DNA of 64,000 nucleotides from Marsupella aquatica (taxonomy: Eukaryota; Plantae; Marchantiophyta), in contig OZ316899.1 of assembly GCA_973895155.1 (NCBI GenBank), forward strand, positions 4,653,241 to 4,717,240, in the 5' to 3' direction. The notes beneath the pieces are model-generated. The model was not told the origin of the DNA, searched no databases, and saw only the letters and a list, made by a program, of their open reading frames with translations. This document shows, piece after piece, positions 7,644 to 61,507 of the stretch (position 1 is the first letter of the stretch; each line of letters opens with the position of its first letter). Made by a program: the position numbers and the translations under genes.

Positions 7644-9462
7644 TTTGCCAATCGGTTTAAGGCTTGTTTGATGTACGAGGTTAATAACGACAGTATAAAT
7701 GAACGTTGAATAATGACAAAGAAAGATACGTTAAGCGTTTGGACGATGTAAATCAATTGAGTTTTGTCGTTATTCAACGGCTGTATTGAACCAACTGATT
7801 GGTCAGTAGTTTAATAGCGTCGGGCGCTACTTTTGTGAACGGAGAACAACTTCACAATGGAAGCATGACTCTGGACCAAATATAGTACCGCGTGGGGAGG
7901 AGGAGAGGGAAAACTCAGATTGTAATAATAGCGCTCGGCGCTATCATCAAAGCTCGTACGTTATAACTCTAACAATAGACAAGAAATCCGTGACGCGGTC
8001 CAAATACGCAGTGTGCATTGAAGTTTTCACAATCGAGAGATCTCAAAAATCTACCAACGCATCTCGTACGTCTATTGCACGATTGGAAACCATTACATCT
8101 AAGACATCCATCTGGGGTCCGAACGTTCTCTCCTCTATCCCCAAAACCTGGCCGGTGAGTCTGCCTCCCATCATTTGGAGTTCTTTGTTCTCAAAACTTT
8201 TATTGCGCTCCTGCCTCCGGTTTCGTCCAAGAAACTTCTGTTCAGTCTCAATCTTTTAGAGTCGTTTGTTTAGGTTTCCATGGCTCCACCACAAGCAAAG
8301 GGGAAGGCGAAGGTTACATTTCAAAGCGACAGCAATAGAGAGGGTGCTGTGGAGAAGTCTCTCACAAAGCCTCCAGCTCATTTGACCGTCCCAATCTTGG
8401 CAAAGGGGAAAGTGATCGCTAAGACACGGGGAACTGTATCCGCACCAGATGGTGCTCCTCAGGCTAAAGTAGAAGTTCAACCCTTGGTGCATAAATCTTG
8501 GGTGTCCAAGGCGGAGTTTTCTTCTTTGCACCAGTCACCTGGGCATGGCACAAGTTGTCACGTCGTCAACCTAGGCCTTAACCCGGGCTTTGGCTTAGAC
8601 AGGCACATCCTTTGTGAATATGAGGGTTCGGGCAGGGAGGGACGCACAAAATGCTCCTAATTCACGTAAATTAGCGCTAAGTGCACTTATTGTTATGTAC
8701 AGACACCTCCTAGGTATAGTTTGTGTTCTGCCGCCTGAACGTACCTTAGTCAACACGGGGTCAACCCCGGCTCACGGACTTCTAAGCCTTTGTGTTACCG
8801 CCTTCGATCCGGATCCGTTAGTACAAGAGCTCAACTCGGGCTCGCAACCCCGTACCCATATCCTGAACCCCGTGCACGGTTGGCATAACGTGTTTGGCCC
8901 GTCATTGATACTTGCACATGAGACTCATACATGCATACATACATAACATAAATCTTGATTTACACGAAGGAATTAAAGAGAAAGGATTTCATTCATTTAT
9001 GATCATACACTTTACGATTGGTTGACCCGACACCTCGTGAACAACCGGGCCCAAGGCCGAGGAGTATACACTACAATGGAGCCCGACTCTGCACTCGCCC
9101 AATGTGACGGGTACCCCGTCACGGGAAGTCACACATAACTGGTTGCAAAGGCCGATACCTTGTTAATAGTCAATGTAAATAAGCCATTTTTTAATTTTTA
9201 GTTAATTCCGTCATTATAGGTTGATGATGCCCCAGGTGACTTTATATTCTTTCTCTCATAATAGTTCTAAGATTTGCGGCGACCTAAGTGGGCAAATATT
9301 TTGGGACCTTGAAACTAGCCAGGACCAGCCCCATAGGACTTACCGTTTTGCTTCAAGAGCTATTGTTGAGACCCCCATTGCAAAGTCAGGAGAGGGGGGG
9401 TTTTTTTTAAATAAATCCCTCCTCAGGAGGGCGAGTCCCATTAGTGGCCGTCCGAGAGAAAG

Positions 9463-9836
9463 AGGGGCTGCCTCGCGAGCCCATAGGGCTGCGTGCCCGG
9501 GCGATTAATGGGGCTCCGCGAGCTGAAGGGGCTGCCTCGCGAGCCCATAGGGCTGCGTGCCCGGGCAATTAATGAGGCTCCGCGAGCTGAAGGAGCGCAA
9601 GCGAGCGGGGGGGGGGGAGTTAAAGGGCCTCCCGCGAGCTGGGAGGATCACGCGAGCGGGGGGGAGTTAAAGGGCCTCCCGCGAGCTGGGAGGATCACGC
9701 GAGCGGGGGGGAGTTAAAGGGCCTCCCGCGAGCTGGGAGGATCACGCGAGCGGGGGGGAGTTAAAGGGCCTCCCGCGAGCTGGGAGGATCACGCGAGCGG
9801 GGGGGAGTTGAAGGGCCTCCCGCGAGCCGGGAGGAA
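9463..9836 (+). repeat. GC-rich tandem repeats in LTR of A: 64-bp unit x2 then 47-bp unit x5 (also at ~20206-20580)
   Basis: 47-bp unit CGCGAGCGGGGGGGAGTTAAAGGGCCTCCCGCGAGCTGGGAGGATCA with starts at 9651, 9698, 9745 and 9792; both unit types share CGCGAGC. Confidence 0.95.
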
Positions 9837-10258
9837 TGGCCGCGCGCCCTGCATAGGGCCGCGCGCAGGAGGACGCAAGGGTAAGGCCCGAGAAATGGGC
9901 CGGGGCGCATGGCGAAGGCGCCAGGAGTTTTTTCGGTTCTATTTTTTTTTCCTTCCTTTTTCTTTCCCTCTTCCTTTTGCACGACCCTCTCATTGCCGAA
10001 AGCAAAAACGGGGTTCTTCTCTCTCTTGCCGGAAGCTCTCTCCAGATTCTAATTATTTTTGAAGCTCTCTCTTTCATGGTGGATTAGTGGGGCTTGCTGG
10101 CGTCATTCTTCCAGGCATTAGTGGCGGCCGCACGGAGTAGTGACGGGAAATTGAGAGAATTTAAGTGATCGGGCTACGGGGGCTGTTTCGGGCCAGGGAA
10201 TTGACATTGCCACGGGTGACGGGATTGGTGATTGAGAAATTGATTTCGGGATGCATGG

Positions 10259-12115
10259 ATGCTAGATCAACCAGAGTTTAGTGCGTCACGCATTCGGAGA
10301 TACAAGGCTGCTTACCGTGACTACGTGGAGACTCGGATTACACGGGAAAGGGAAGAGAGAGAAGTTATGATGAGCACGGGATTGGCAGCGGGTTCCTCAC
10401 CGGTGGGTAGGAAGATTTTTCGTCGAATTTATCCCAAGACCTCCACCAAGGTGATGGAGGATTGTCGGAACATTTTCCAAGCCACCGGGCTTACAGAATT
10501 CATGAAGGTGGAGATTACCATCCCTTCAGGGAAGAGCTGGGACATTGAGGCCGGGATGGAGTTCCGAACGGAGGGAATCTACTTTGAATGTCTCAAACGT
10601 GTAGTGCCCCATGTGGAGTTGGCTAAGCTATTGTTTCTTGAGAATCAGAAATTCTCATTCACACCTCGGAATATCAGGGGAGAACTCACGTTGAAAATGG
10701 TGGCCACTTGGGTGACCAATCCTACCTCCACCACCGCCATCCCTCTTTCTGCTGTCAAGGATGTTGAGTATAAGGGCTTCCTGGCCAAGGTGCATCAACG
10801 GGTTCTTGGCAACGTGCAATCCGGAGTGCTGAATGAGGAGCATTTCGTGGTAGCTATGGACATCAAGAACTACCCAGCCCATGTGTACGGATGGTGGTGC
10901 TACGGATTGAAGAAGCTATTGGCCGCTGAGCCCGGGAGTGTGAAACCAGGTGGGGCTGTACATTTGATGGGGTCATTTGTATTGGCCAGGGCAGAAGGGT
11001 TGATTGGTTCTCCGGGGCATGAAGACACGGGATCATCTCTCACCACGGAGATCCGGAGTATTGCCACTACCGTTTTAGGGAAGCTCACGGAGGAATCATT
11101 GTCTGCTGGTGGGGAGGATAATAGAGAAGAAGAGAACCAGGAGGATGATTGCACATTGGAGTGGCTTGAATCACTCGTGGGAGATCCGAAACAGCCTCTG
11201 GAATACAACATTCCGGATGTTTACTTGGCAGAGCTACGGGATTTCAGAGAGGGAGTCCACGAGGGACTCAAGCTAGTCCACGCATTGAGGGAGTCTCTCA
11301 AGCACGCCACAGTCAAAGTAGAGACGTTAGAGCAGAGCATCCTGTCACTGAAGGAGGTGATCAAGACCAAGGAGCAGACCATTCATGAGAAGGTCAGGCA
11401 CATCAATGCAGCTCACGTAGAGATCACCAACTTGAAGGGAGCTTTGTCCACCAAGGCCAAGGAAGCAGAAGAAGTAGGAGCGTTGAGGCAAGCATTGGCC
11501 AAAGAGAAGCAAAATTCTGGAGAAGTGATGGAGTGGAGGAACCAGGTGGGAGCACTACGGAGTCAGGTGGCAGCCTTTGAGACACGAGCGAAGAGAAGTG
11601 AGGCCCTGAGTCTAGGGAAACGGAAGAGTCCCGGCACACCTGGCTCCACACTTTCCCCGGATGTGATCTCCCAAGCTATCGAGATGGTGGTGAAGGAGGT
11701 TAGTGGGAAGTATGGACCCTTGTTGGATGGAGCCAAGAAGAGTCAGGAGAAGAGTAAGAGCTTGGAGAAGAAGCTCCGGGAGGTACGGAAATCGTTACGG
11801 GAGGCTCAGGTCAGTACGGGGATGCCACCCAGGTCTGTCACCCCCGGGACTCCCATGGCCACGGGGCAAGTTCTACCGTTGGAGTTGCGGTCCGGAGAAG
11901 AGGCTACCCTCTGGAAGGACACAATTGGTGAGGGGTACATCAAGGCGTGGCAGGCCTTGGCTGCTTTGAGGAAGCGCGGGAGCAGCAGCACTAAGAGTAC
12001 TCCGTCGAAGAAGAAGAAAAGTACGGTGGCACTCACTCCCGTGAGTGATGAGGAGGAGGACCACTCACGGGGCACAAGTCCGGGCACCGAGAGCGAAGAA
12101 GAAGAGGAGGATTAG
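10259..12115 (+). CDS. LTR-encoded 618-aa protein of A (divergent PMD/plant-transposon-protein-like N half, coiled coil, basic NLS-like and acidic tail)
   Basis: Intact ORF wholly inside the LTR; heptad region VETLEQSILSLKEVIKTKEQTI; PSKKKK; weak similarity to the B and C LTR ORFs. Confidence 0.85.
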   Translation: MLDQPEFSASRIRRYKAAYRDYVETRITREREEREVMMSTGLAAGSSPVGRKIFRRIYPKTSTKVMEDCRNIFQATGLTEFMKVEITIPSGKSWDIEAGMEFRTEGIYFECLKRVVPHVELAKLLFLENQKFSFTPRNIRGELTLKMVATWVTNPTSTTAIPLSAVKDVEYKGFLAKVHQRVLGNVQSGVLNEEHFVVAMDIKNYPAHVYGWWCYGLKKLLAAEPGSVKPGGAVHLMGSFVLARAEGLIGSPGHEDTGSSLTTEIRSIATTVLGKLTEESLSAGGEDNREEENQEDDCTLEWLESLVGDPKQPLEYNIPDVYLAELRDFREGVHEGLKLVHALRESLKHATVKVETLEQSILSLKEVIKTKEQTIHEKVRHINAAHVEITNLKGALSTKAKEAEEVGALRQALAKEKQNSGEVMEWRNQVGALRSQVAAFETRAKRSEALSLGKRKSPGTPGSTLSPDVISQAIEMVVKEVSGKYGPLLDGAKKSQEKSKSLEKKLREVRKSLREAQVSTGMPPRSVTPGTPMATGQVLPLELRSGEEATLWKDTIGEGYIKAWQALAALRKRGSSSTKSTPSKKKKSTVALTPVSDEEEDHSRGTSPGTESEEEEED

Positions 12116-13246
12116 ATAGGCGTACGGACGTGGGTGTACGGCCTCCAGATTTCCAACATTTTAGTGGGGGGTCACTCATGGGCTTGTTGGGATGAGCTCG
12201 CGGAGCTGATTCCAACAAGAGGCGGCGCTCCTCAAACGGAGCCAGGATGAGCAAGTTATGGCCTGGAGAACTTATGTTTTTGCGGTACGGAAACGGCCAT
12301 AACTCAGGCGTCTGAAGTCCGTTGAGGGAGCGACTTAGTGATTCGGAAGCAGGAAAAGAAGAGCTATCCAGGGGTGAGCTCAGGTGTGCACTTGGAAGGG
12401 CACCTAGTTTCGGCCATTTTGGGGTGCCTCTCACTTTCAGGGTTCACGTGTACTGTTGGGGCGCCGTCGAAGGCACCGTCGGCCCCCTTGTTTTGGGTTT
12501 AGGGTTTTAGCAGCATGTGTGTGCCGCATGCTCCTCTTCAGTTTAAGGATTTCTCTTAGTGCGAGGTTTTAGCGGCGCCGCTAGGGTAGCCGCCACCGTT
12601 GTGACCCTGTGAGGGGTGCTTTGGTGTGATTTTTCAGTATTTAGGGGGATAGCCCCGAAGTAGTTAGGGGGACTCAGTGTGAAGTTAGCAAGGAGGGATA
12701 GAGTGGAGCCTGAGGAGTTTGAAAGCGTGTTCAGAGTAGTGAGGGGGAGCCATACTCATTGTCCGGAGAGGCAGGAGTTGAGTAGACGGCAGGAGGCCGG
12801 GTTACTCATGCAATGTGTATCGTTTTTCCCAAGAGATATGGATCTGTACATTTGACTTGATGGGCTTTTGTTGTGTGTTCCTTCTCCCTTTTTCGCTTTC
12901 CGAATTGTGTTCTCCCGTTCTATGATTTGAAGAAACTTGCTTGGTTTGAGTCGGCCTTGTGAGTAGGGGTGGTGACAGCACTCTTTGGGTGACTCCGAGT
13001 GAAGGTGTAGTGGGGTAGTCGGCAGGACTTGATCAAAAGCTGTGGGGTGAGGGTAGTCGGTAGACTTGATCAAAACCTACATTTCCGGGAGCGGAAACCA
13101 AAATACTCATCCTGGTGTGAAAAGAATCCAAATAGCGTCCCTCCACGACCCCGTAATACGATACCAACGGTTTAAGCGAAGAAAAGTGCGGTTTGCACGT
13201 ATTAACCGTTGGAGAGGCAAGTGACATAAGTGTGGTCTTTTGTTTT

Positions 13247-13264
13247 TGGCGCCGCTGCCGGGGA
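13247..13264 (+). promoter_or_regulatory. Primer-binding site of A, tRNA-Asp type
   Basis: TGGCGCCGCTGCCGGGGA is one mismatch from the Athila-type Asp PBS TGGCGCCGTTGCCGGGGA; it lies 20 nt from the LTR end. Confidence 0.8.
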
Positions 13265-13481
13265 ATCCTTCTTCTTGTTTGACGACACGAAGGAGGGGAG
13301 CTACGTCTATTGGGAGTTCAAACCTATCAACCACAACGCAACTTGCGACGGTTGATACGTGAGAAGTTTGTTGGTTACTTTGTTATTGTACGTCAACCAC
13401 AACGCATCGTGCGACGGTTGATGTTTACAAATATTGCTTTCTGAGACATTGGTGTAAGTTTGGAATGCAGGTCTCAATGGG

Positions 13482-16400
13482 ATGCCGAGAGGGAGAAGGG
13501 GAGGTAGAGGAAGTCCCCAACACACACGTACCCCAAGATCAGAGCTAGAAGGGGGGCCCTCTTGGATTGGGACCAGACGACGAGTTGCTGCCGAAGAACG
13601 CTTACGGCTTGCAGAAGAGAGGAGGTTGCCACTGGTGCTGGAAGAACAAGTTGGTGTGCAACAGGAAGAGGCTCAACGTAATGAGGCCATATGCCCAGAC
13701 GAAGAGCCAGACATAGATCACGAGCGAGAAGAAGGAGAGCCCTTTGTGTTGGTGCAGTCTGAGTTACAAAATCTGATCCCAGAGCTCACTGCATTGCCAC
13801 AAATCATCTCACACCTATCATCGGTGCTGTTACCGGTGGCCCAACAAGCGCCATTACCACCTGTGTTGATACAGGCACCGGCTGCACCGATGGCAGCTGC
13901 ACAACGTACCCGTGTTCAGTACGTACCCTTCAAGGGGAGACCAAAGGATGATCCAGACGAATGGATTGAGGAGTTTGAAGGGATTGCCGAAGCTAATGGG
14001 GAGTCTGCACATAAGCTCACTATCATTCCTGGAATGATGAGAGGGGAGGCAGGTCCATGGTTCATTTCGTTGTTGGCCAACGTGAAAGCTGATTGGGCTC
14101 TGTTCAAGCAAGCCTTCTTGAAGGAGTTCAGATCCATAGGAGTGGAGGCCACCTCACTATTAAAGGTGGGCCAACTCAGGATGAAGAAGAAGGAGTCATT
14201 ACGGAGGTTTTTGCAAAGGTTCCAAAAGCTGGTACGTCGGATCCAAGCCCGTACCGATGATGCTATGCGTCAAGCCTGGTTTGTGGCTGCCCTACCAAGC
14301 AAGATGGGGTTCTTTGTACGTCAAGCCAAGCCAACCACATTGGCTGAAGCTATTGCAGCAGCGGAGTCATACACCGCAGCTGATGCCACAAGCAAGCGTT
14401 GCCGAAGAAAGAAGCTGAAGCCGGTTGACAGTTCCTCCAGTGAGGAGTCGAGTGGATCTGATTCAGATAGTAGTGATGAATCTGAGGATTCTGAGAGTAC
14501 TACAGAGTCAGACACTACGGAGTCAGAAGCTGAAAGACGAAGGAGGAAGAAGAAGAAGTTGTCAAAGAAAGTCAAGAAGTCCTCTCACCGTGAAGTGATA
14601 CTACCCACGGTGGCCGTTACACCATTGTCTACGGCAAGACGCCTGAAGGAGCAAGAGGCCAGATATGATGAGCTGACGGAGCAAATGAAAGCGTTGAAAG
14701 TACATTTTGCCGGACTCAAACCTGAGAGGAGAAAAGTTCCGGTGGAGAGAGCCAATGTGTGGTGCACCAAGTGCATGAAGTTTGGTCATGCCCCGAAGGA
14801 GTGCCCAGCGGGAGAACCAGCCAAGGTTTTCCAAGTACGGGAGGAGGATGTTGAGGGGGCAAGCTACTCAAATCCTTCATATGCAGCGGAAGGGCCAATA
14901 GAGTACTTCATGGAGGAGCCACCAGAGGCCAACGTGTATAGTGTACAACCTCTCAACCCGGGACCACGGAGCATTCATGGAGTTTCAACAAACGCCGGAG
15001 CACCCGCATACTCCAACTATCCCAACGCTAACCCAGGGAATCGACCACCGTACCCTGGAGTGAGGAAGATCCCTATTTGTTACAATTGTAGAGTGGCGGG
15101 CCACTACGCTAATGTGTGCCCAGAGCCCACCCGTCAAGGCAATGGAGATTTTGCCCGGCTGTGTCAACTATGCAAGGGGGAGGGTCATCTTGCACCACAC
15201 TGCCCAACCTTGGAGGCGTTCAAGGCTCAACCGATTGGGGCACAAGAGAAGAAGGGGCCGCCACCTCCTCTGAAAGAAGCTAGCGTCAACTTTCTCACCA
15301 CGGAAGCAGTCGACACCCCTCTAATCACTAGAAGAGAAGAAACCGTAGTGAACATTCCCAAGCAAAGGATGACCACCATAACGGAGGAGGTGGTACCGCT
15401 AGTCGTTGTAGTATCTCCAGTTGTTGAGATACCGGTGGTTGTTGTTGCAACATCTACGGAAGTTGAAGTTGCTAACCCCTCACCCCCAAGTCATGAGTGG
15501 ACTCATGCTGAGAATCTACCGGAGGAAGACAGCGACGAGGAGAGAAGGCATTACTCTTGTTACCGAGTCTCCACTCGATCCGGCAAAAAGAAGGGCAAGT
15601 CCGAGCTCAAGCAGAAGTACAAGGAGGTGCATCAAGCTTCCACATCGGGTACCTCACACGAACCGGAGGTGCCACCCATGGAGGATAGTGACTTTGATCG
15701 GGACAACCCCAAGTTGTTCTATCCGAAGGTGGGAGAAGAGGTACGTAAGCAGTTGGAGGAGCTAGAAGCACAAGCCATGCAAGCGGCCATTGACAAAGAC
15801 ATGGAGGAGGCAAAGGCCAGAAAGAAAGCGGAGGAGAGGGTTGTTCGTTGGAAACCGGGAGAAGAGGTCATCCCACCCATACCTCCTGCAACCGCGTACA
15901 ACATTGCTCAAGACATTCTGGATTGCCCAGTCAGTGCCACAATTGGTCAACTATTACGGGATAGCTCCCTATACCGTCGCCAAGTCAAGGAGATTCTCAT
16001 GAGGAGGAGACGTAGAAGAAGGTTACCCAAAGTTGGGGCTGACCCCATACAAGTCAACTGGGTCACGGAGGATTTGGGTGCCCCAGAACTCACGGTGGAC
16101 ATCAATGGATGTGCAATACGGTTTGTACCGGTGGACGGGGGCTCGGGAGTCAACATCATGACTGAGGAGACGGCAAACCGGTTGGGGTATACAGAGTTAG
16201 AACCACCGGCACGTGCCATGAGGTTGGCTGATGGTGCACGGGTGGTGCCGTTGGGGTGTCTCACCAAGATTCCAACAATGATTGGGGGAAAATCTTTCCC
16301 CCTCAACTATTTGGTGATGCGACCCGTTCGGCCGTACGGTTTTCCCATTTTAATTGGCAGGCCATGGTTGTATGTGGCCAAGGTCACAAGTGATTGGGGC

Positions 16401-19400
16401 AAACGGCAGTTTCGGTTTGGTATCCCCACTATCACTATTCCATGGTCAGCGGAGTCACCTCACGGGGAGACTACGACTATGGAGGAGGAATATGATTCAG
16501 AGGTCACCTCAGATGAAGACGAGGATGAAGTATACATGGTGAAACTGATTTCTCACCTCACGGAGGAAGATGTTTTTGGCCCCGGAGTTGCTACTCAAGA
16601 GCATGCAGTAGAGGAATCAGTTAGCCAAGTGCACGCTGTTCTAGAAGAGATGGAAGACGAGCGAAGCAAAATTGTGGAGGCTGAACCTCTAGAGATTCAT
16701 GATAGGGAGGCAGAGGATCACCCCGAGGAGGTGGAAATGCAAGCCCACACGATCATGTTTGATGATGAGCAAAGAGAGCAGTTTTTGAATGACATCCTGG
16801 ATGATGACTTTAGAGAGGAGCTATTGTCACATTACAAAGAATCTGACGTTGAAGAAATAATGGCCCATGTGACAAAGGATCCACCTCCATCCCGACCAGA
16901 CCAGGAGGAGAGTGATGCACCGGTGTATGGAGGGATGAGGCTCGCACGGTTGGAAGAAACCTTTGATGAGGAGACACGCAACAAGTTGGACGTGATCAGG
17001 CCGGAGCAGTACACAAAGGTGGAAGTGGGTGAGGGCAAGACACTCAACATTGGTAGTAAGTTGGATGCTACGGAGCAACGCACGATTCAGGAATTGTTGA
17101 AAGAGTACCAAGACGTATTTGCGTGGAGCCACCAAGATTTGAAAGGAGTGCCACCTGAGTTTGGTGAGCACAGCATTGACCTGATGTCAGGAGCACGACC
17201 TGTGAGGCAACGCCAATACCGCCTCAACCCCAAATACTCACTCATGGTGAAGGAGGAGATTGACCGTTTGTTGGATGCAGGATTCATTTATCCGGTCATG
17301 CATAGTGAGTGGGTGTCACCCATCGTAATCGTGCCCAAGAAAAAGGGGCCAGACGGGAAGGTGAAAATACGGGTGTGCCAAGATTTTCGAAAGTTGAATG
17401 ATGCGACCAAGAAGGATCACTACCCGCTACCGTTCACGGATATCGTGTTGGACATGGTAGCAGGTTGGGAGATATACAGCTTCTTGGATGGCTACTCTGG
17501 GTACAACCAAATCTGGATACGGGAGGAGGACCAACTCAAGACGGCTTTCACAACAGAGTGGGGGATTTTTGCATTCCGGAGAATGCCTTTTGGGTTGTGC
17601 AATGCCCCTGGCATGTTCCAACGGCTCATGATGAATATATTTCATGACTTTTTACGCAGGTTCTTGGAGATCTTTATTGATGACTTTGCTGTCTACGGCA
17701 AACGAGTCAAGCATCCGGAACACTTACGGTTGACTTTTCAGCGGTGCCGGGAGACTTGCCTGAAGCTGCATCCGGAGAAATGTTTCTTTGGAATTGAGGA
17801 GGGAATCCTATTGGGCCACAAAGTGTCTGCACAAGGGATTGAAGTTGATCGTGAGAAGGTCGCCGTGTGGGTAGCAGTCTCATTTCCCAAGAATGTGAAG
17901 GAAGTGAGAGGGTTCTTGGGGTGTGTTGGCTACTACCGACGCTTCATCAAAGACTTTGCCAAGGTAGCCATGCCACTCACTTCCATGTTGAAAAAAGGAA
18001 GTGAGTTTGAACCTACTCCTTCCCGTCAGGCTGCTTTTGATGAATTGAAGAAACGATTGCTAGAGGCCCCCGTGCTCATTACGCCCAATTGGAATAAGGA
18101 ATTCCATGTTTACGTAGACGTATCAGGATTTTGCATCGGTGCCGTTTTGAGTCAGTTAGATGATGATGGAAGAGACCATCCCATCTACTTTGCCAGTAGG
18201 CAGTTGGCCCCGGCAGAGAAAAACTACTCACCCACCGATAGGGAGGCACTTGGTATCATCTACGCTTGTAAGAAGTATCGTCATTATTTGTTGGGGTACA
18301 AGGTTGTGTTCCACACGGATCACAACAGCTTGAAATACATGGTCAACAAGCCAGATCTGTCCGGGAGAATTGCACGTTGGGTTTTGTTGCTACAAGAGTT
18401 CAACTATGAGGTGAGAGTAAGATCGGGGAAGAGTCATAGCAATGCAGACTTCTTCTCCCGTATTGAGGGAGCATCTGACTCCCAGGAGATTGATGATCGG
18501 TTCCCGGATGAGGAAGTGTTCAGCGTGAATACAGAGGCCACTACTTGGTATGGAGAAATTTTGGAATTTCTCCGCACGGCTAGAGTTCCCTCACGTTTGG
18601 GCCCGGAGAGAGCAGCAGTGTTTTTGCGTAAGACAGGTCCCTACTTGCTTGTGAAGGGAGTACTTCACAAGTACGGCATGGATGGCCGACTTCGTCGTTG
18701 TTTGGAGGAAGCGGAGATACGTACAGTCATGGCAGCATTACATGAGGAGGAAGCTGGTGGCCACTTTGCACGGGAGACCACCGCAAGGAAAATACTAGAT
18801 GCTGGATATTGGTGGCCAACTCTCTTTCGGGATGTACACCGGTACATCCAGCGATGTGATCCGTGCCAGCGTCAAGGCAAACCAGGGCCCTCCTCACGAC
18901 ACCCATTGGTGCCCATACTTCCTCTTGCACCCTTTGAGAAGTGGGGGGTGGACTTCATTGGCCCTTTCACTCCCATCACACGAAGAGGGAGGAAGCGCTA
19001 CATCATTCTTGCAACGGACTATGCCACCAAGTGGGTGGAGGCCCGAGCTACTGCCAAGGATGATGCCAACACCACGGCACGTTTTTTGTATGAGCAGATT
19101 TTTACACGATTTGGTCCACCATTGGAGTTGGTAAGTGACAGGGGTACTCACTTCCTCAATCATACGATTGAACGTTTGACGGAGAACTACTTGATCTCAC
19201 ATAGGAAGACCACTCCGTACCACCCTCGAGCCAACGGGCTCACTGAGAGAGCCAACGGGATCATGGGCAAGATCCTCAACAAAACGGTATCCGCTCACAA
19301 GACCGATTGGGATTTGAAGTTGTTGGCTGCCACTTACGCTTACAACCTGGCTCACAAGACTACCACGGGCCACAGCCCCTATTTCCTTGTGTTTGGACAA

Positions 19401-23970: not shown

Positions 23971-24309
23971 CCCAACGAGCTTAGTCGTATACCCTCCCCT
24001 TGGTACTCCGGTACTTCACTGAGTTTGGGACTCCCCGTACGTACTGCAAATGGCCAACTTTTGAGTCTAAAATCCCCCTCTAACCTATACTGGGGGGGCC
24101 GCTAAATACTAAGGGCTGAGGACCGGCCTGGCCTCATGCCCAAATCTACGCTAACTTATATCCTTGCTAAGTTGGTGCTTGCTTGTCCTATTAGTCTAAC
24201 CTATTCTACACAGGCTGGCTAATGTGTCAGCGCCGCTATCTTCTGGCCGGCACTTGTCCTACCAGCCTGTTTTAGCTACTCCTAAGTCTATTCTAAGCCT
24301 AACCCTCCG

Positions 24310-30800: not shown

Positions 30801-32565
30801 AGTAGTGTCCTACATTGTTGTCGTTGCCGTTGTCGTTGCCGGTGCCGATCTCTTTTCTTTCTCCAGTAGTTTCAGCAGACTCTGCATGCCTGGTTGCTGC
30901 ATCGGCAAGTCCTCCTTCCTGGGCCTAAACACCTGCTCGATCGTAGGGCTAACAGGTGGTTGAGGCTTCTCTGCTACTGGCCTCGGTTCTGGAGCTTCCT
31001 CGGGTGCCCTTACCTGCAGGGGAAGTACTGGGGCAAAAGTCTGACCTCTGGCATACCGGCACAACAGCGGCATGTGATAGCCAAGCCGCGACACGCTCCC
31101 CATGCCGATTACCTGTTGCTCCTCCTTTAAGATCTTCTTCAATTGGTTGAGGAGGTACCCGTTGTAGTCCCGGCTTGGGTCTGGCCTCTCTGCCAGATAG
31201 ACCTGTGCCTTGCCGATCTCCGCCCTCGGCAAGTTACAATGCATGGTCACCCGCAAGAAGTCGATCATCTCTCCTATGTGCGGGTTGGTGCAGGTGTTCC
31301 CGAAGAAGCCATTCTTCGTTGATGGCCCGGGGAACGACCGGAACTCCTTGTCAGGCAAGGTCTTCCTGGTATCAACTTTGGTCTTATTGCCTATCGGCAA
31401 GCCAAACACTTTGGCAATCACTTTGGGAGTAAGATAGAAATCCTTCCCATATATCCTCGTGCAATTGGTCTCAGGTTCCCATGACCCCACGAATTCTAAT
31501 AGGTCTGACTCCGGTACCTCCGGCTTCAGCCATGGTAATCTTACAAAGGCCTCTAAGCCGGATCCGGCCATGAAGCCTTGGTACTTCTTGGTCTGCATGG
31601 CCGTAAAGCATGCATCCTCCTCCCGTGCAAAATGTAGTTGCACCTCTACCGGTAGGGTTGCCGCCCAGCCCTTCCAGGTGTCATCCCTGGTTGGAATGGC
31701 CTTGATGGGATCGACCTCCTCCTCTTCGGCTTCTCCCTGCCTCCTGCTCTGCTGCTCGGCTGGCTTCTTTGGTACCGCCGACCTCGTTCTTTTTGCCGGG
31801 GTGGCTTCATTGTTGACGGCTCCCTTCCTCTTCATCTCTGCTGCCGTGGAGGTTTCTCCTAGCACTGTTGCCTGGGTCCACCTTTCCGTGCTACCCTTCA
31901 ATTCCCAGTGTATGTCGTTGCAGTTCTTGATGGCCTCTCGGATGCCGACGACGCTGTCTTTGCAAAACAGAAGATCGTCGAGCTGATTGGAAGTAGGAGT
32001 CCACAAGAACTCGTCTTTGATGAGTTCGCCTCCTAAGAAAGCCGTCTTCTGCAGCTCCCACAATCGAGCGAGCTCCTGCCATTCTCGAGCTGCCCTTTCT
32101 GATTCCTCATCCTCGTAAGTCTTGATGTACTCAGTTGCCCGTTCGAACAGGCATCCCCAGAAATGTGCCGCTTGATTGACGTTGCTCATACCCTCCTTAG
32201 GTCGATCGTCGGTATCTACTCTCTCCCCGAGTGCTTGCCTAAGCAGCTGACAGTAGTTGACCTCCCGTAGTCGTCTGCCTAGTTCGTGCTCGCAAATGAG
32301 CCACCATCTCCTGCAAGCGCTCCTTACCCCTCTCCTCTTCAGGTCCTTCCTCCCGTTGATCCTTCCTAGCCGCCGATGCTTAACGCGCCCTAACCCTAAT
32401 CGAGTTTTCACCCCCAGCGTCCTTACCTCCGGCCTCGGCCCGGGTTCCATGGTTGCCCCTAATTGTTTATATTTTCCTTGTTTTGTCCCTATACTAAGGT
32501 GTTTCTAGGGTGCCTTCCTGCTTTACCCACTTAACTGGCCGAGTGATTCCTGTCTAGGCATCACA
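27895..32565 (-). repeat. 3' LTR of C (4671 bp)
   Basis: Repeat of 38781-44334, roughly 1-2% diverged by eye and mostly transitions; preceded on the minus strand by PPT AAGTGGGGAGCTA. Confidence 0.96.
28914..32450 (-). pseudogene. LTR-encoded ~1178-aa protein of C (PMD-like domain + long coiled coil), 3' LTR copy with two CAG>TAG stops
   Basis: ORFs 30810-32450, 30423-30710 and 28914-30239 are in one frame; the stops are read through in the other LTR. Motif LLEFVGSWEPETNCTRIYGKDFYLTPKVIAKVFGLPIG resembles the plant mobile domain (W.PET...T...V....GLP..G). Confidence 0.88.
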
Positions 32566-35500: not shown

Positions 35501-38500
35501 ACTAGCCGAGTTGGTCCCTTCCTTGGTGTCCATAGATTGTCCCCTTGCCGGTCTATCCGGTTTTGAATTGGTGGTCGGCTCCCCTTCCTGCCTTGGCTCT
35601 GGATTGTGTCTGAGCATCTCATCCACCTCTTGCTCCTGAGGGTCAGGCCGCTGTGCTCTCCCGGCTTCTAATAGGGCCTCAATTTGTTCTGCCCTCGTAA
35701 TCGGCTTGTATGCCGATCCCTTGGTATTTAATTCCTTGCCGATGATCGATGGCATTGTGAACCCTGCCGGCTCTGCCACAACGCCTGCAGAAAATCCACT
35801 GTCCCTGCTACTGCTCCCCACTTAGCCGTTTCATCCAATTGGTCTACATCCTTTACTTCCTCCGGAATTGCAGCTAAAAAGGTGGATTCTATTGTAAAGC
35901 AGTCCTCGACCTCTTCGTCTTCTTCTTCTAAGTCACCTTCCATTGGTTCTTGCCATAATCCGCTGGGGGGTACCTCCGGTCCAAAGACACTTTCTTCGGT
36001 TAGGTCAGTGAGGCATTCTAACCAACGTACTTCATCGGCTGACTCCAGTCCACTGTCGTACCCATCTACTTCCCTTATGCTTTTCCTACGGTCATCCTTA
36101 GTGTCCCAGGATACCGTGATAGAGGGGGTCCCGAAAGTGAACTGCTTTTTACCCCAATCTTCTATTACCTCGGCTAGGTACAGCCATGGCCTACCAATCA
36201 ATAGCCGGAATGACGTAGGATTTACCGGCTTCATTACCACATAGTTAATGCTAAAAAAGATACCTCCTATCTCTGTCTTGATGCCGGTTAACACTCCCGT
36301 GGGAATGACCTGATATCCATTGGCCATGTTCAACACTCTTCCAGTCATCTCCGGTGTTAGACCCCATCCTTTTGCTGTTGAATCAATCATAATACATACC
36401 CCTGATCCTCCATCGATGGGTACCCGTAGTAATAATTCTCCTTGAATCATTAATGGTAATGCTGGGGCTCCTTGATCTTCTTCTATCATTAGTACGTCGG
36501 ATCTGGTTGCTACCTTGGGTAATCTCGGCTTGCCGAGAATAGCCTTCCTTAATTGCTTCCGGAAGTACGGGCTATTTTTCAATAGTTGACCTACTGTTGC
36601 CGAGACTCTAGATTCTAGTACATCTTTAGCCAGGTCATAGGGAACAATCGGCTTCTCCTCTGGTGGTGTCTCCGTCTTGGATTCGGCCAGTTTTGCCACG
36701 CTAGTCTCCACAGCTGTTGGGTCCTCCGAAGCAAACAATGCTTTTGCTCGTTTCACATCCTTGGCAATGGCTTCGGTATTCTCCAGGGTTTCTAATTCTC
36801 TCAATTGTTCCTTAACACTAGCCGTAACAGAGGGGTAGAACAACTTAGGATGATCTCGATTGAAGTCGCTATCTTGTGAAGGATTGGGTTCACTGGTGGG
36901 CTCATGGCTTACCTGTATTGCCGGAGCCCTCCCTTCTCCTTCCGTTGATGTTGACGAAGAGTCGATCTTTTCCTCCGTAACCTTCCCTTTATTTTTGGCC
37001 AGCCCATCCCACCTTTCCTTCCTTCTGGTAGATCGAGTAGAGACCCGGTAGCAATCATGATCTAAATCCTCTTCTGAGAAGGTTGATAGGGCTTCGGCCT
37101 CATCATCAGATGGTACGAACTCTGCCTCGGCATCCTCTTGCCATCCTAGTTCGATGTGGTTGATTTGAACTCCTCCGGGGGTAGTACCTGGCGGTAAGAC
37201 CTTGACCAGCAAAAGTTTATGATTTGCGGCCAGGCCTGCCAACCAAGTAGGACATTGGCCTAGCATATGACCTTCCCTAAACATAGCTGAGCTGGTTGTC
37301 CATCACCCTGTTTGCGTGCATTCGGGCATTCTCTAGCAAAATGGCCAGGTTGACCACAATTATAGCATGCCGCAAATCTTTGCACATTCGGCCTAGGAGG
37401 TACAGATGGGTTTTGAATAATCCGAGGATACATCTCTCCTGGATTGTTCCTTAACCCTGACCACAGGGATGCAGGTCTGTTGGATAGGTCTCGTGCTCCA
37501 GTCTCACTGATGCCGAGAACACTATCAGCGGCATCTCCTAAAAAGTACTCTACTTCTCCCTGACTTGGTCTGATCTCGGCCACATGCCAAACATGATTAG
37601 TATTAAGCTTAGGACACGCATCTTTATGGTGTCCGGTTTTATAACATAAGGCACACCATACAGAGCTATCCTCCTGTACTACCTTCTTCTTTGGTTTTAC
37701 CTCTGCAATTATAGCCTTAAGTTGCTCTGTAAGGGCTACAATGTTATCTGGTGGCTTAGCCTCCAGCTTGACTTTCGTCTTCCCTCTCCTTCTGCCCTTC
37801 CTTTTCCTAGTTTTTTCTTCTTCAGAACTAGAAGATGACTCACTCTTGCTACTTCCACTATCCGAGCTTCAGTTATCACTTCTTGACTTCTTAGAATGTT
37901 TCTTCTTCTTATCTTTTTTCTTATGGGGTGATCCCTCCTCTGATGAGGAACTCTCAGACTTAAGCTGTTTCTTCCGGCTTGTGATATCTGCATTAATGTA
38001 TAATTGAATATCCTTAATTGCTTTGGCTAAAGTCTCCGGGTTCTCCTTCCTAATTGCAAAACTCATCTTCTGTGGCAAAGCATTCACCAACCATTGAAGT
38101 TGCATACTTTCAGATGCATTGGTCTTTGTACGTCTTACCAATTTCTGAAAGCGTTGCAAGAACTTCCTGAAGGATTTGTTCTCCTTGAACCGAAGTCGTC
38201 CCAACTTCAGCACTACTAGTTCTGAAGTTCCAATAGGTCGAAACTCCTTAACAAAGAGTGTTTTGAAGATATCCCAGATGGCTTGATCTTCCACATCTAA
38301 TGCTCTGTACCAAGGCCTAGCCTCACCCTTGAACAGGCCAGGAAGAATCTGCATCTTGATGGCCGATTCTCCATTTGCTGCAGCGGTTCCCTCGAAATCA
38401 TCCAACCATTCGTCCGGATCCTCATCTCCTCTCCCATGAAATGCCTTGTAATGTATGCGCGACCGTTGGCTCAGTCTGGTCCCTGGCCTCTCGTCTGGTC

Positions 38501-38711
38501 GTGCCTCTGGTTCCCCCATGTCGGTTGGAGACTCACTTCTCCTTACCGACTCTTCTTCTGGTAAGTCTTCTTCGACGCCACTTCCAGTTTTGGAGCTACC
38601 AGCTCTTTCTGCCCCTCTCAGTCGCTGTGTATCATGCCACCCGGCGAGCTGCTGCAGTCCAGCTCTCTCCCGTTGAATCACTCTTTCTTCCCTCGGCGTA
38701 AGGTCAGTCAT
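32554..38711 (-). pseudogene. gag-pol: gag-pol of C, with stops and frameshifts
   Basis: Fragments: gag DEDPDEWLDDFE, CYNCGQPGHFAREC, IDGGSGV, IFIDDF, VFVDVSG, WGIDY/SDRG/GLTER; ends ASQLSGELCDA inside the LTR. Confidence 0.95.
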
Positions 38712-38758
38712 TACCTACGCTTCCTTTCTAACTTCATATCTCACGGCTTAAGAAATGC

Positions 38759-38776
38759 CCCCTCCATCTAGCGCCA
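38759..38776 (-). promoter_or_regulatory. Primer-binding site of C, tRNA-Asn type
   Basis: Minus strand TGGCGCTAGATGGAGGGG, 4 nt from the LTR; near-complement of the plant tRNA-Asn 3' end (TGGCGCTAGAAGGAGGG), as recalled. Confidence 0.72.
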
Positions 38777-39799
38777 AAAATGTGGTGCGTCCCATGGCTC
38801 CCTAAACCCAAGAAACCCCCCAGCTCAAGCCGATTCCCGCAGGTTTCACGCTTGGCGAGGCCGTTTCCGCGGCTTAGCGGCATGGGACGCTGCTAACCTT
38901 CTACTATTACTATTAACATTTTACACACATATACTGGACAGATCCTTCATCGGGTCATGAGATACGTAGCCGGCCTAATCTAGGCCTTCCCTCGTCTTCC
39001 CCTCCGTCTTGTTAGGTATGTTTGGATTCCGCCGCCGGAATGATCCCCAATAGGCTTGGTTAAGCCGCTAAGACCTCTCTCAGCTCGACACATCCAACTC
39101 TCACCCCCCTGCTTACTTTCCTTCCTTCTGGTTGATGTGGGCACTCTTCACACAAGTTAATGCGACACACAAATAGCAAAATGACTCATTCTGACTGAGT
39201 CATACCATGCACTTGCCATACAAACAGTACATCTCATACACAAGCTCTACGAACTAAGCCGTGAGGCCGACTCTATTCAGCTCTTAGGCATGAGGAAACA
39301 TGAATATACACAAGGGTCACTGTATGACTAACCGAGAGCTTCTCTTACTACTTGATCCCAGCCCGGCTGGTGCAAACTAAAAACTTGCTAAAGAAGAGGC
39401 CCTGAGCTCCCCGCTGCCCAGGTACTTATCCTGGTAGTGGATCCGCCTAATTCTTTGCAGCGTAAGCCTAATCTACCTAACAGTAATCTACTTGCCCGGA
39501 TCTACCTATGTACAGCAAGGCAGGAGCACAAGTGTTGCTCCTACCAGTGGAACCGCAATCCCACTAAGCTAAGTGTCAGGGCCGCTCCTGGTCCTGATCC
39601 TAATCCTAAACTTGGAGATCAGCGCCCGCCCTGCCCACTCACGCCTCCTCCCTCCACGTTTGCCCTTCCTAAAAGGAACGGCGCCCTTGCACCGTCACGA
39701 CACCGGTGGTGGATCCTCAATGGACGCCCCCAGTGCTTCCTCCTCAGCCACTGCCGTAGGTTCGTTTTCTGATAGATTACCTGCCCTTGACTGAGTCAA

Positions 39800-42700
39800 C
39801 TATCCATCGGCCTGACTGGGTCCACCATCGGCGTCGGCATCGGCTCGGGAATCATTCTCGGCTACGGCCTCAGCCTCGGCTATGGTCTCCCCGGCCTGCT
39901 CAAGAGGCGGATCTGGGATACCGGCCTCATTACTGAGTAGTTCGGCTTGGGCCGCACCACCCCCACCTGTGATGATAGCGGGATCTATTGCCGTATTCAT
40001 GCCGGAGGATGGTGCTGGGTCTACCTCCTTGGTCACCACGGCTTGTGGAGTCGGATTACTCCTTGACCCTGAAGGTTTCCGCTTCTTCTTCTTTTCTGGT
40101 TCGGCAGCTGGTCCCTTCCCCTTCCCACTTACTTCCAGCACTGGTGCAGGTGGCGCGGCTTTTTCTTCTTCCAGTACCACTCCTGGTAACTTGGTTGCCC
40201 CAATTGGAGTTGGGCCTGATGAAGACAAGCACTTAAATACTGCGGCTTGTTTCTTCAGCCGCTCCGTTTGGTTGTCGGCCCGCCGCTGGAGGTTCTCCAT
40301 CTTCCTCGTGATTTCCTCCAACTCCTCCTGGGTCTCATCCAGGTCCTTGCGCGCCTCCTCTAGTTCCTTTTGGGCTTCCTCCCGTTCTTTTTTCAAGGTA
40401 GTCCTCTCCTCCCGGGTTGCTCTTAGCTCCTTGTCGAGCTCTGCAATGATGACAGACTCCATCTGGTTCATCTTGGCGTAAGTCTGATCGAGCATCTCGT
40501 CCTTCTCCCTTAGGTCGGCCTTGAAGCTGGCCGTCAGGGACGCAAGCTCCTGCTGCAGCGTGTGATGCCTAGACAGGAATCACTCGGCCAGTTAAGTGGG
40601 TAAAGCAGGAAGGCACCCTAGGAACACCTTAGTATAGGGACAAAACAAGGAAAATATAAACAATTAGGGGCAACCATGGAACCCGGGCCGAGGCCGGAGG
40701 TAAGGACGCTGAGGGTGAAAACTCGATTAGGGTTAGGGCGCGTTAAGCGTCGGCGGCTAGGAAGGATCAACGGGAAGAAGGACCGGCAGAGGAGAGGGGT
40801 AAGGAGCGCTTGCAGGAGATGGTGGCTCATTTGCGAGCACGAACTAGGTAGACGACTACGGGAGGCCAACTACTGTCAGCTGTTTAGGCAAGCACTCGGG
40901 GAGAGAGTAGATACCGACGATCGACCTAAGGAGGGTATGAGCAACGTCAATCAAGCGGCACATTTCTGGGGATGCCTGTTCGAACGGGCAACTGAGTACA
41001 TCAAGACTTACAAGGACGAGGAATCAGAAAGAGCAGCTCGAGAACGGTAGGAGCTCGCTCGATTGTGGGAGCTGCAGAAGACAGCTTTCTTAGGAGGCGA
41101 ACTCATCAAGGACGAGTTCCTATGGACGCCTACTTCCAATCAACTTGACGATCTTCTGTTTTGCAAAGACAGCGTCGTCGGCATCCAAGAGGCCATCAAG
41201 AACTGCAACGACATACACTGGGAATTAAAGGGTAGCACGGAAAGGTGGACCCAGGCAACGGTGCTAGGAGAAACCTCCACGGCAACAGAGATGAAGAGGA
41301 AGGGAGCCGTCAACGATGAAGCCACCCCGGCAAAAAGAACTCCATCTGGTTCATCTTGGCGTAAGTCTGTTCGAGCATCTCGTCCTTCTCCCTTAGGTCG
41401 GCCTTGAAGCTGGCCGTCAGGGACGCAAGCTCCTGCTGCAGCGCCATAATCCCTTGATAGGATTTTCCTAACTCGACCTCCTTCTGCTCAAGGGCTCCGT
41501 GAATTTTCTCGAGCTCCCCCTTCAACGCCCATTCCTTTCTTTGGGTCTCCGCCATGGCCCGGCTGTTGGCTATTATGTGGGCCTCCTCTGTATTCCTCAG
41601 CTCTCGCTTCCACTTCTCCCTCTCTTTGATCGTGTCGGCCAACTCTCCCTGCGTCTGAGTCAGTTTATCCTTGATATTCTGATTATCAGCCTGCGCGGTG
41701 TCCAACTGCCCCTACATGATGTTCAGCTCATGCCGTTTAATCCGCAGTTCATCTTGGGCTTTCTTGGCCGCCCTTAGATCTTCAATCTCGGCTTCCATCC
41801 TCCTAAGCCGCCGAATGACCTCGTCCTTCTTGCTTCTCTCTAAAGCCACCCCTTCTTCTAATTGGTGCTTCTCCAACTGCTCCCTATGGAAAAAGGGTCC
41901 TACCTCCAACTCCTCTCCAAAGATGCCGAGCGCAAGTTCCCCACACATCTCACCATACTCCATGGCTCTATTCTTAGCGTAGGTGGAGTAAGTAGAAGTG
42001 ATCGGCATCGCCCATCGCGGCCTCTGCTCCCAAGCCATCTTGCGGATCTCTTCAATCGTGGCTAGAGGTTTGCTTCCTTTTTCGGCTAGCCGCCTGATGT
42101 CCTCCGGCCAATCTCCTCCTGGTAAATCCTTTTCCCTAGCCAGGGCTGCCTCCTCTTCCTGCCTGATTCGCTCCTGAAATTCTTGCGCCGTCTGTTTTAT
42201 GCCGTCAAAGCTCGGGGGAGCAACATCTGGTGGGGGAGACTCAGGGCTACTCTGCTGGTTGGGGTCCCCTCGTACTACCCTTGGAAGTGTGGGGACAAAC
42301 CGACCACAGGTCCTTACTCCTGGAACGTGATGGTCCGACCCATAGCCGGAGTTATCATGGCTGCAGTCCTCCACTGCCTCCTCTATTTCTTGGACGTCCG
42401 GCTTCTCCCTCTCCTCTTCGTTGGTAGGAGCTTCAGGCAATTTTGCCTCAGATTCAGAGCTTGAGACTCCCACATACATTCGAACACCTGGCTTGGATTC
42501 CGGCCTGATTCTCTCCTCGTCTCCAGCAAAGGGGTTTTCTCTTGTGAGCCGGTGTAGGCCTACCTCTGGAGTAGTGTCCTGCATTGTTGCCGTTGCCGTT
42601 GCCGTTGCCGATGCCGATCTCTTTTCTTTCTCCAGTAGTTTCAGCAGACTCTGCATGCCTGGTTGCTGCATCGGCAAGTCCTCCTTCCTGGGCCTAAACA

Positions 42701-44219
42701 CCTGCTCGATCGTAGGGCTAACAGGTGGTTGAGGCTTCTCTGCTACCGGCCTCGGTTCTGGAGCTTCCTCGGGTGCCCTTACCTGCAGGGGAAGTACTGG
42801 GGCAAAAGTCTGACCTCTAGCATACCGGCACAACAGCGGCATGTGATAGCCAAGCCGCGACACGCTCCCCATGCCGATTACCTGTTGCTCCTCCTTTAAG
42901 ATCTTCTTCAATTGGTTGAGGAGGTACCCGTTGTAGTCCCGGCTTGGGTCTGGCCTTTCTGCCAGATAGACCTGTGCCTTGCCGATCTCGGCCCTCGGCA
43001 AGTTACAATGCATGGTCACCCGCAAGAAGTCGATCATCTCTCCTATGTGCGGGTTGGTGCAGGTGTTCCGGAAGAAGCCATTCTTCGTTGATGGCCCAGG
43101 GAACGACCGGAACTCCTTGTCAGGCAAGGTCTTCCTGGTATCAACTTTGGTCTTATTGCCTATCGGCAAGCCAAACACTTTGGCAATCACTTTGGGAGTA
43201 AGATAGAAATCCTTCCCATATATCCTCGTGCAATTGGTCTCGGGTTCCCATGACCCCACGAATTCTAATAGGTCTGACTCCGGTACCTCCGGCTTCAGCC
43301 ATGGTAATCTTACAAAGGCCTCTAAGCCGGATCCGGCCATGAAGCCTTGGTACTTCTTGGTCTGCATGGCCGTAAAGCATGCATCCTCCTCCCGTGCAAA
43401 ATGTAGTTGCACCTCTACCGGTAGGGTTGCCGCCCAGCCCTTCCAGGTGTCATCCCTGGTTGGAATGGCCTTGATGGGATCGACCTCCTCCTCTTCGGCT
43501 TCTCCCTGCCTCCTGCTCTGCTGCTCGGCTGGCTTCTTTGGTACCGCCGACCTCGTTCTTTTTGCCGGGGTGGCTTCATTGTTGACGGCTCCCTTCCTCT
43601 TCATCTCTGCTGCCGTGGAGGTTTCTCCTAGCACTGTTGCCTGGGTCCACCTTTCTGTGCTACCCTTCAATTCCCAGTGTATGTCGTTGCAGTTCTTGAT
43701 GGCCTCTCGGATGCCGACGACGCTGTCTTTGCAAAACAGAAGATCGTCGAGCTGATTGGAAGTAGGAGTCCACAAGAACTCGTCTTTGATGAGTTCGCCT
43801 CCTAAGAAAGCCGTCTTCTGCAGCTCCCACAATCGAGCGAGCTCCTGCCATTCTCGAGCTGCCCTTTCTGATTCCTCGTCCTCGTAAGTCTTGATGTACT
43901 CAGTTGCCCGTTCGAACAGGCATCCCCAGAAATGTGTCGCTTGACTGACGTTGCTCATACCCTCCTTAGGTCGATCGTCGGTATCTACTCTCTCCCCGAG
44001 TGCTTGCCTAAGCAGCTGACAGTAGTTGGCCTCCCGTAGTCGTCTGCCTAGTTCGTGCTCGCAAATGAGCCACCATCTCCTGCAAGCGCTCCTTACCCCT
44101 CTCCTCTTCAGGTCCTTCCTCCCGTTGATCCTTCCTAGCCGCCGACGCTTAACGCGCCCTAACCCTAATCGAGTTTTCACCCCCAGCGTCCTTACCTCCG
44201 GCCTCGGCCCGGGTTCCAT
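39800..44219 (-). pseudogene. 5' LTR copy of the C LTR-encoded ORF, broken by one stop (41712) and the inverted insert
   Basis: The 835-aa, 131-aa and 231-aa fragments match the 3' LTR copy. Confidence 0.88.
40561..41340 (+). mobile_element. Inverted 780-bp fragment of another family-C LTR (exact LTR 5' terminus)
   Basis: Starts TGTGATGCCTAGAC, the reverse complement of the end at 44334; carries SNPs absent from both C LTRs; flanked by duplication 40458-40560 / 41341-41443. Confidence 0.92.
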
Positions 44220-44339
44220 GGTTGCCCCTAATTGTTTATATTTTCCTTGTTTTGTCCCTATACTAAGGTGTTTCTAGGGTGCCTTCCTGCTTTACCCACT
44301 TAACTGGCCGAGTGATTCCTGTCTAGGCATCACATCTTG

Positions 44340-61493: not shown

Positions 61494-61507
61494 AAAATAC
61501 TTATAAC

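Follow-up and report, generated by a model that had tools for sequence, protein, structure and literature searches.

The stretch of DNA analysed here (the window, 64,000 nucleotides of contig OZ316899.1, assembly GCA_973895155.1, from the liverwort Marsupella aquatica) contains three nested Ty3/gypsy retrotransposons of non-chromovirus type, designated A, B and C, which were recognized by comparison of the window with itself and from the sequences at the element boundaries. Their long terminal repeats (LTRs) are unusually large, at 4124/4126 bp in A, approximately 3967 bp in B and 4671 bp in C, and each contains a long open reading frame (ORF) on the sense strand. As described below, this ORF is a genuine accessory gene that is carried in the LTR, is under selection and belongs to an unnamed family, and relatives were identified in which the gene lies in the internal region, outside the LTR.

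Three nested elements with ORFs inside their LTRs

Element B is the outermost and most decayed of the three; C is inserted into its integrase and A into its 3′ LTR (Table 1). The hallmarks of Ty3/gypsy elements are present, namely an LTR pair with TG..CA ends, a 5-bp target-site duplication (TSD), a site for primer binding (PBS) plus a polypurine tract (PPT), with the 5′ LTR of B surviving as a remnant. The size of the B LTR is therefore based on a single copy, interrupted by A (27395-23971 plus 9097-8556), and on the TSD. The LTRs of A differ from each other by four substitutions and two indels, and those of C by about 1.2%. The LTR DNAs of A, B and C match one another over just 14-20 bp at E<=1. 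A preliminary description of this DNA, made from the sequence alone, had reported three gypsy elements with giant LTRs containing long sense ORFs and LTR DNA that could not be aligned, and both points stand; the range that it gave, 9103 to 44334, was too narrow, since B extends from 8556 to 45561.

Only in A is the LTR ORF intact, and there it is so in both copies, as that description had noted. The lengths that it gave for B and C (approximately 870 and 1178 codons, the latter 76% of the LTR) were also found, but both frames are broken: that of B contains 10 in-frame stops and no frameshift, and that of C contains two in-frame stops in the 3′ LTR copy, while the 5′ LTR copy has one stop and carries an inverted insertion as well. 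Only 115 bp of LTR precede the first ATG in C. On their sense strand the LTRs are rich in G. The longest open frame in the LTR of A is 623 codons, versus a median of 151 and a maximum of 344 codons in 300 Markov-2 simulations.

The typical protein consists, by simple scores, of a domain, a low-complexity linker and a coiled coil, without a transmembrane segment. Coiled-coil segments were located with a simple heptad score made for this analysis at residues 339-370 and 488-521 of the A protein, 736-856 of B and 672-1038 of C. All three proteins thus possess coiled coils, as had been claimed, but they do not all end in them, since those of A and C terminate in low-complexity tails. No transmembrane segment, which would be an env-like mark, was found in the three proteins; the maximum 19-residue hydropathy (KD19) was 1.09-1.29, or about 1.1-1.3. 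Basic clusters were found in the proteins of A, B and C, and in three of seven relatives.

The internal regions are occupied by gag-pol. Pfam searches of the A polyprotein confirmed the domain order gag, protease (PR), reverse transcriptase (RT), RNase H (RH) and integrase (IN). No Chromo match at E<=1 was observed after the integrase in A or C, where pol ends at the LTR. The A polyprotein contains a single RH region, and the additional archaeal-type RNase H (aRH) that marks the Tat elements Ogre, Retand and TatI-III was not found in it. In A, B and C, pol reads through a conserved PPT box into the start of the LTR, so the box is also coding and no space remains between pol and the 3′ LTR. The overlap amounts to 36 nt in A (19845-19880) and 12 nt in C (32554-32565).

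The PBS of A is of the Athila type, which we take to correspond to tRNA-Asp. The spacer between LTR and PBS is 20 nt in A (13227-13246), 4 nt in C and 11 nt in a related metagenomic element, L001 (see below); that of A is unusually long, and integrase processing would need to remove it.

Table 1. Features of elements A, B and C (positions in the window; strand relative to the window)
Feature	Position	Strand	Remarks
Element A	9103-23970	+	TSD CCCAA; inserted into B 3′ LTR
A 5′ LTR	9103-13226	+	4124 bp, TG..CA ends; TSD CCCAA 9098-9102
A tandem arrays upstream of LTR ORF	9463-9835, repeated at 20206-20579	+	64 bp x2; 47 bp x4.8
A LTR ORF, first copy	10259-12115	+	intact, 618 aa; globular at the N terminus, with coiled coils, KKKK and an acidic tail
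A relic-like PPT box	12151-12174	+	60 nt past ORF stop, 1052 bp from LTR end
A PBS	13247-13264	+	TGGCGCCGCTGCC..., Athila-type; 20 nt past LTR end
A gag-pol	13458-19880	+	one intact 2140-codon frame; gag, CCHC, PR, RT, one RH, IN (Pfam)
A conserved PPT box	19819-19844	+	at end of pol
A 3′ LTR	19845-23970	+	4126 bp; TSD CCCAA 23971-23975
A LTR ORF, second copy	21003-22859	+	intact; one base different from first copy
Element B	45561-8556	-	TSD ACTTG at 45562-45566 and 8551-8555
B 5′ LTR remnant	45352-45561	-	210 bp, deletion-joined to RH region; TSD ACTTG 45562-45566
B RH-integrase remnant	44335-45351	-	resumes at 27894-27396 past C insertion
B 3′ LTR, first 3425 bp	23971-27395	-	TATAAAA at LTR position 369, then pyrimidine-rich leader
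B LTR ORF	24310-26922	-	870 codons; family domain at aa ~296-488
B 3′ LTR, last 542 bp	8556-9097	-	beyond A insertion; TSD ACTTG adjoins
Element C	44334-27895	-	TSD TCTTG; inserted into B integrase
C 5′ LTR	38781-44334	-	5554 bp including inverted 780-bp LTR piece 40561-41340 and 105-bp duplication; TSD TCTTG 44335-44339
C LTR ORF, 5′ LTR copy		-	family domain at 42777-43454
C gag-pol	32554-38714	-	split into several frames
C LTR ORF, 3′ LTR copy	28914-32450	-	1178 codons
C 3′ LTR	27895-32565	-	4671 bp; TSD TCTTG 27890-27894

The inverted 780-bp piece in the 5′ LTR of C (within window 40456-41443, with a 105-bp duplication at the site) is the start of another C-family LTR, to which it is 96.7% identical; a template switch or an aberrant integration possibly placed it there. 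Elsewhere in the window, two decayed Ty1/copia-like remnants in opposite orientation (52615-56369 and 60017-62629; Pfam Pol_BBD and gag_pre-integrs) are about 65% identical. ORFs at 3825-7730 and 46754-50017 have no Pfam match, and 561-884 resembles 49517-49840 (67%). The ORF at 3825-5339 ends in a CxC..CKH motif similar to a SWIM finger of Mutator-like elements.

Selection on the ORFs and the family of their products

Contigs from four DNA runs were placed on the ORF of A, and the 40 best supported of the resulting 276 substitution rows were analysed. These comprised 23 synonymous and 17 non-synonymous variants and no stops, versus an expected synonymous share of 0.23-0.31 (p 3e-6 to 5e-4), corresponding to an omega of about 0.2-0.33. 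Only two of the five indel rows lie inside the ORF. A similar skew was seen in the inverted piece in C, which derives from another copy and in which 12 of 25 coding differences are synonymous (p 0.03). Between elements, four pairs of the accessory domain gave pN values of 0.39-0.55 against pS values of 0.69-0.87.

The synonymous excess among the A variants and the skewed inverted piece of C show the LTR ORF to be a genuine gene on which purifying selection acts in lineages that replicate. The preliminary description had proposed an accessory protein gene that is duplicated with the LTR and selected at the protein level, and the variant pattern and the conserved family bear this out; its argument from shared coiled coils was dropped, as these alone imply nothing. 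In runs X1 and X2 the summed contig depth on the ORF of A reaches thousands, and many of the contigs are 80-95% alike; depth does not equal copy number, and the pattern suggests a high-copy family with diverged subfamilies.

The proteins of B and C are homologous, as had been suggested (phmmer E 9e-16, B311-512 versus C288-485), and share a domain of roughly 190 aa. A phmmer search of 1.84 billion proteins with the C domain returned 20 matches at E<=0.001, of which three were discarded as unrelated by their Pfam content and 17 were kept as family-like. Two of 10 family proteins looked up carry the name Calypogeia fissa, a liverwort. No Pfam family reaches the cut-off for the accessory domain, and the domains in the window lack any Pfam match.

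The kinships put forward in the preliminary description fared unequally. Membership of PMD (PF10536) was not borne out: no match to it appeared in any Pfam scan of the window or of the relative proteins. For Transposase_32 (PF20167) the best match, in one of 14 members (L018), was 15.2 bits (E 0.02), below the gathering score of 45. The ESM look-alikes of C include Transposase_32 (0.89) and ATHILA (0.87); an ATHILA cluster was returned for A at 0.76, as a lead only, and an unnamed cluster of 279 aa and 72 members was returned for both A and C. These leads, although below the cut-off and lacking for the window domains in Pfam, hint at a remote kinship of the family to the Transposase_32/ATHILA ORF proteins. 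The A protein may be a diverged member of the B/C family, with which it shares only a GL.EF motif, at an equivalent place; the match is insignificant. Searches of PDB sequences, phages and Rfam gave no match. The AlphaFold models were too poor for a fold search (pLDDT, the predicted local distance difference test, 33.8 for the A N-terminus; pLDDT 46.6 and predicted TM-score, pTM, 0.28 for the C domain with 21 rows).

Relatives carrying the gene inside or outside the LTR

The best 80 of 433 confirmed metagenome loci (L001 onwards), fetched by means of their integrase, were scanned with an iterated profile of the accessory domain. The domain was found in 36 of the 80 at E<1e-3, and in 33 of these it lies on the integrase strand, downstream of the integrase. 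It is apparent that two states exist. In L001, which was assembled as a circle, the PPT box known from the window stands behind a 741-aa ORF and opens an LTR of 991 bp. In L018 an LTR of 542 bp is likewise positioned behind the ORF, and in L023, L037, L042 and L064, with LTR pairs of about 600 bp, the domain is internal, between IN and the 3′ LTR. An Athila-type extra ORF and a long non-coding stretch between pol and the 3′ LTR occur in L001 and L018, and are absent from A, B and C. In these three elements, and in L003, L004, L005, L007 and L009, the box is found immediately after pol, with the ORF behind it. In the giant LTRs, the part behind the ORF is 0.9-1.1 kb long, matching the whole LTR of L001. 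The LTR of A contains, in addition, a relic-like PPT box just past the ORF stop (Table 1). This box scores higher with the position weight matrix than any other site of that LTR (p 0.016 over the LTR as a whole, p 0.003 for the area up to 300 nt from the stop).

A phylogenetic analysis of the integrase was performed with 26 rows chosen from 83, with a midpoint root and with distant Ty3 rows outside. The eight rows with the box after pol form one group with L014 (support 95/92), which corresponds to one change and was recovered in 97% of bootstrap trees, and the internal-state elements are its successive outer branches. An 81-row quick tree, for which the careful search was incomplete and from which L061 and L062 were left out as too short, gave the same grouping. 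The direction of change would appear to be from internal to LTR. The existence of relatives with the gene outside the LTR, a point absent from the preliminary description, would explain the origin of the arrangement.

Several loci merit separate mention. In L001, purine tracts flank the accessory gene (3735-3775 and 6535-6575), the first directly after pol; the same tract follows pol in L002 and L008. In a first reading the tract after pol in L001 was taken as the LTR start, which was rejected because the true box lies behind the ORF; consequently L002 and L008, whose contigs are short and contain a similar tract, are unclassified. The tract after pol in L001 is a possible second plus-strand priming site. 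L006 was scored as internal from a PPT-like site; its 811-codon 3′ ORF (L006:2663-5098), with coiled coils and a Cys/Trp-rich C-terminal part, is unmatched by the family profile. In L018:1-4710 the integrase is open into the accessory ORF in one frame, a possible fusion of pol to that ORF, with a TATA-like site and an ATG before the domain. In L010-L013 the polyprotein extends past the integrase, and visual inspection of L011 and L013 showed a second aspartic-protease-like DTG motif. Nothing was returned by locus scans of viral_contigs with RT or integrase, of prokaryote genomes with the PPT pattern or of metagenomes with P0027.

It was of interest to compare this arrangement with known systems. 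Accessory ORFs within or overlapping U3, duplicated on integration, are known in retroviruses (MMTV sag, lentiviral nef, foamy-virus bel/tas), but those genes encode about 200-320 aa, whereas the plant retrotransposon ORFs described here encode 618-1178 aa, fill up to 76% of the LTR and are unrelated. The elements resemble Athila, whose sense extra ORF lies 3′ (ATHILA ORF-1, PF03078, or Transposase_32, PF20167; env-like), in their non-chromovirus Ty3 type, the PBS of A, a sense ORF downstream of pol and a globular domain plus coiled coil, and the Athila layout is identical to that of the internal-state L001, L018 and L023. They differ from it in that the ORF lies inside the LTR, twice, the internal region holds little besides gag-pol, no Pfam match reaches the cut-off and no transmembrane segment was found. 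The extra ORFs of Retand/Grande (Transposase_28 plus an SMC-like coiled coil) are also accessory genes near the 3′ end with a conserved domain and a coiled coil; unlike those described here they are antisense and internal, in elements with LTRs of 315-1194 bp, and their PF04195 is unmatched in the present proteins.

An own promoter and nuclear location are reported for Grande gene23 (PMC7264820, PMC11963269). Ogre elements, with LTRs of 1.9-6.5 kb and extra ORFs that contain PMD in 57% (PMC6431247, PMC6317226), are of a non-chromovirus lineage and similar in their very long LTRs and extra ORFs, but the latter are described as internal and a second RNase H is present, whereas PF10536 is unmatched here. 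In Phygy a polyprotein fills the internal part, as it does here, but Phygy elements are said to be short and to lack extra ORFs (PMC6317226). Tat Z1/Z2 elements of seed-free plants, which occur in liverworts, have no additional RNase H (PMC10508981, PMC13468544), like A with its one RH region. In the papers cited here, the extra ORFs of plant elements are located internally, on the 5′ or the 3′ side of gag-pol (PMC7264820, PMC10508981, PMC6317226, PMC11728184, PMC11963269, PMC12885004, PMC5418596, PMC13547354, PMC13468544, PMC6431247), and no paper on a gene carried inside the LTR of a Ty3 element of plants was found, as judged from search listings.

Origin of the giant LTRs and the role of the product

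The reading that best accounts for these data, to which we assign a probability of about one half as a whole, is that a shift in plus-strand priming captured a 3′ accessory gene into the LTR, and that the product is a predicted nuclear oligomer that would protect the element from silencing. The ancestral element would have carried the accessory gene between pol and a short 3′ LTR, as L001 does. Plus-strand priming may then have moved to purines located where pol ends, for which the second tract in L001 provides a ready substrate, and the accessory gene with its own promoter would have become part of the LTR, likely of U3, and have been copied to both ends. A giant LTR would accordingly consist of the accessory gene with its promoter plus an ancestral LTR of about 1 kb, and each LTR, a solo LTR included, would be a complete transcription unit. 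Ahead of the ORF, B, L004, L007 and the internal-state L018 have a TATA-like box and a pyrimidine-rich leader. Capture from an internal position is quite probable; a location in U3 rather than in R or U5 is favoured less firmly.

The product might act as a coiled-coil oligomer in a VANC-like manner, possibly on the tandem arrays of the LTR itself. VANC anti-silencing proteins are reported to have structural homology to MAIN, and VANC and the Athila domain have been modelled as coiled-coil pentamers (PMC13547354). VANC is carried by a DNA transposon (VANDAL, of the MuDR type), so the likeness is one of functional model: a globular domain plus a coiled coil and, in A, arrays upstream of the ORF. 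A nuclear anti-silencing or transactivating role is proposed because of the basic clusters, the coiled coils, the A arrays, the weak ATHILA/Transposase_32 link and the VANC report; we put it at slightly less than even. A bolder version is doubtful: that in an entire seed-free-plant Ty3 clade plus-strand priming moved to an upstream purine tract and the LTR became a self-contained gene of 4-5 kb, complete with promoter, an ORF of 600-1200 aa and a 3′ end, for a VANC-like anti-silencing oligomer, with solo LTRs supplying it in trans and L001, which has purine tracts on either side of the gene, as an intermediate.

Several observations weigh against the capture of a 3′ gene that encodes a silencing-protecting protein. 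The relic box was found in only one of four LTRs tested (A), being absent from those of B, C and L005. L003, L004, L005, L007 and L009 each have one LTR copy per contig, and their LTR limits were deduced from the box. In neither A nor B was a canonical TATA detected in the kilobase behind the ORF, which weakens the case for a downstream main promoter. In the domain tree, L003-L005 group with the internal-state L001/L002 (100/99), apart from B/C. The 40 variants were no random draw, and the LTR pair of C is unskewed (15 of 42 synonymous, p 0.21), as is expected after insertion. Among 14 members PF20167 is matched in L018 alone, at 15 bits under a cut-off of 45. The A protein gave an hhalign score of 20.9 with the B/C family, versus a maximum of 19.65 among 60 shuffled comparisons, and ranked 22 of 1001 against the wider family profile. 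A word-based homologue search gave nothing for A or for the C domain, and one protein for the wider alignment.

Some of these points bear on the possibility that the LTR serves as a slot for cargo and was filled independently, by several captures or swaps, with the gene of A unrelated to the B/C family. The lack of a significant family match for A is compatible with it, and the conflict between domain and integrase trees makes gene swaps or a second capture possible. Nevertheless, A agrees with the family in position, strand, domain order and the place of the GL.EF motif, and the ESM search gave one 279-aa cluster for A and C together with the ATHILA lead for A. Independent filling is considered unlikely.

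It is also conceivable that the ORF lies in a giant R or U5. The promoter would then be near the LTR start, genomic RNA would begin with the ORF, and gag-pol would be expressed by splicing or re-initiation, as in the 5′ extra ORFs of Ogre/Tekay. This would agree with the position of the only clear TATA and pyrimidine-rich leader, at 340-460 of the LTR and before the ORF (B 369, L007 339, L004 459), with the post-ORF part of A and B that lacks a canonical TATA, and with the enrichment past the stop of TGTA motifs, the plant 3′ end type (10 of 14 in B, 6 of 10 in C). It would, however, require a strong-stop cDNA of 3-4 kb or a giant R; the internal-state L018 possesses such a promoter-like region upstream of the ORF and, within its short LTR, a separate TATA-like site, and in C little sequence precedes the first ATG. 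A location in a giant R or U5 appears rather improbable.

The same architecture could serve a protein that acts in the particle or RNA phase, as a chaperone or in nuclear import/export or cell-to-cell movement, rather than on chromatin. The gene occupies an env-like position in the relatives (sense, between pol and the 3′ LTR), such roles have been proposed for env-like ORFs (PMC7264820), and long coiled coils are generic. Set against this are the missing transmembrane segment, the basic clusters in the three proteins and in some relatives, and the nuclear signals reported for look-alike families (PMC11728184); a role of this kind is judged improbable. Finally, segmental duplication or a chance, non-functional ORF in a purine-rich LTR, for which the broken frames of B and C and the G-rich sense strand might be cited, is refuted by the TG..CA ends, the three TSDs, the PBS and PPT at the limits, the simulations, the synonymous excess and the conserved family, found in 36 of 80 loci.

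No Pfam model exists for the family, which may be the seed-free-plant branch linking the ATHILA and Transposase_32 ORFs. Plant transposable-element annotation treats LTRs as non-coding, so that a gene under selection that occupies as much as 76% of an LTR is missed or called a host gene. The loci show LTR growth through 3′ gene capture in its before state and its after state, and this provides a testable mechanism for giant LTRs, which is relevant to LTRs of Ogre size. If the LTR is indeed a self-contained gene, each insertion brings two copies, and solo LTRs would keep supplying the factor in trans. If, moreover, silencing is countered by the protein, the formation of solo LTRs, by which the host usually removes such elements, would leave the counter-defence in place.

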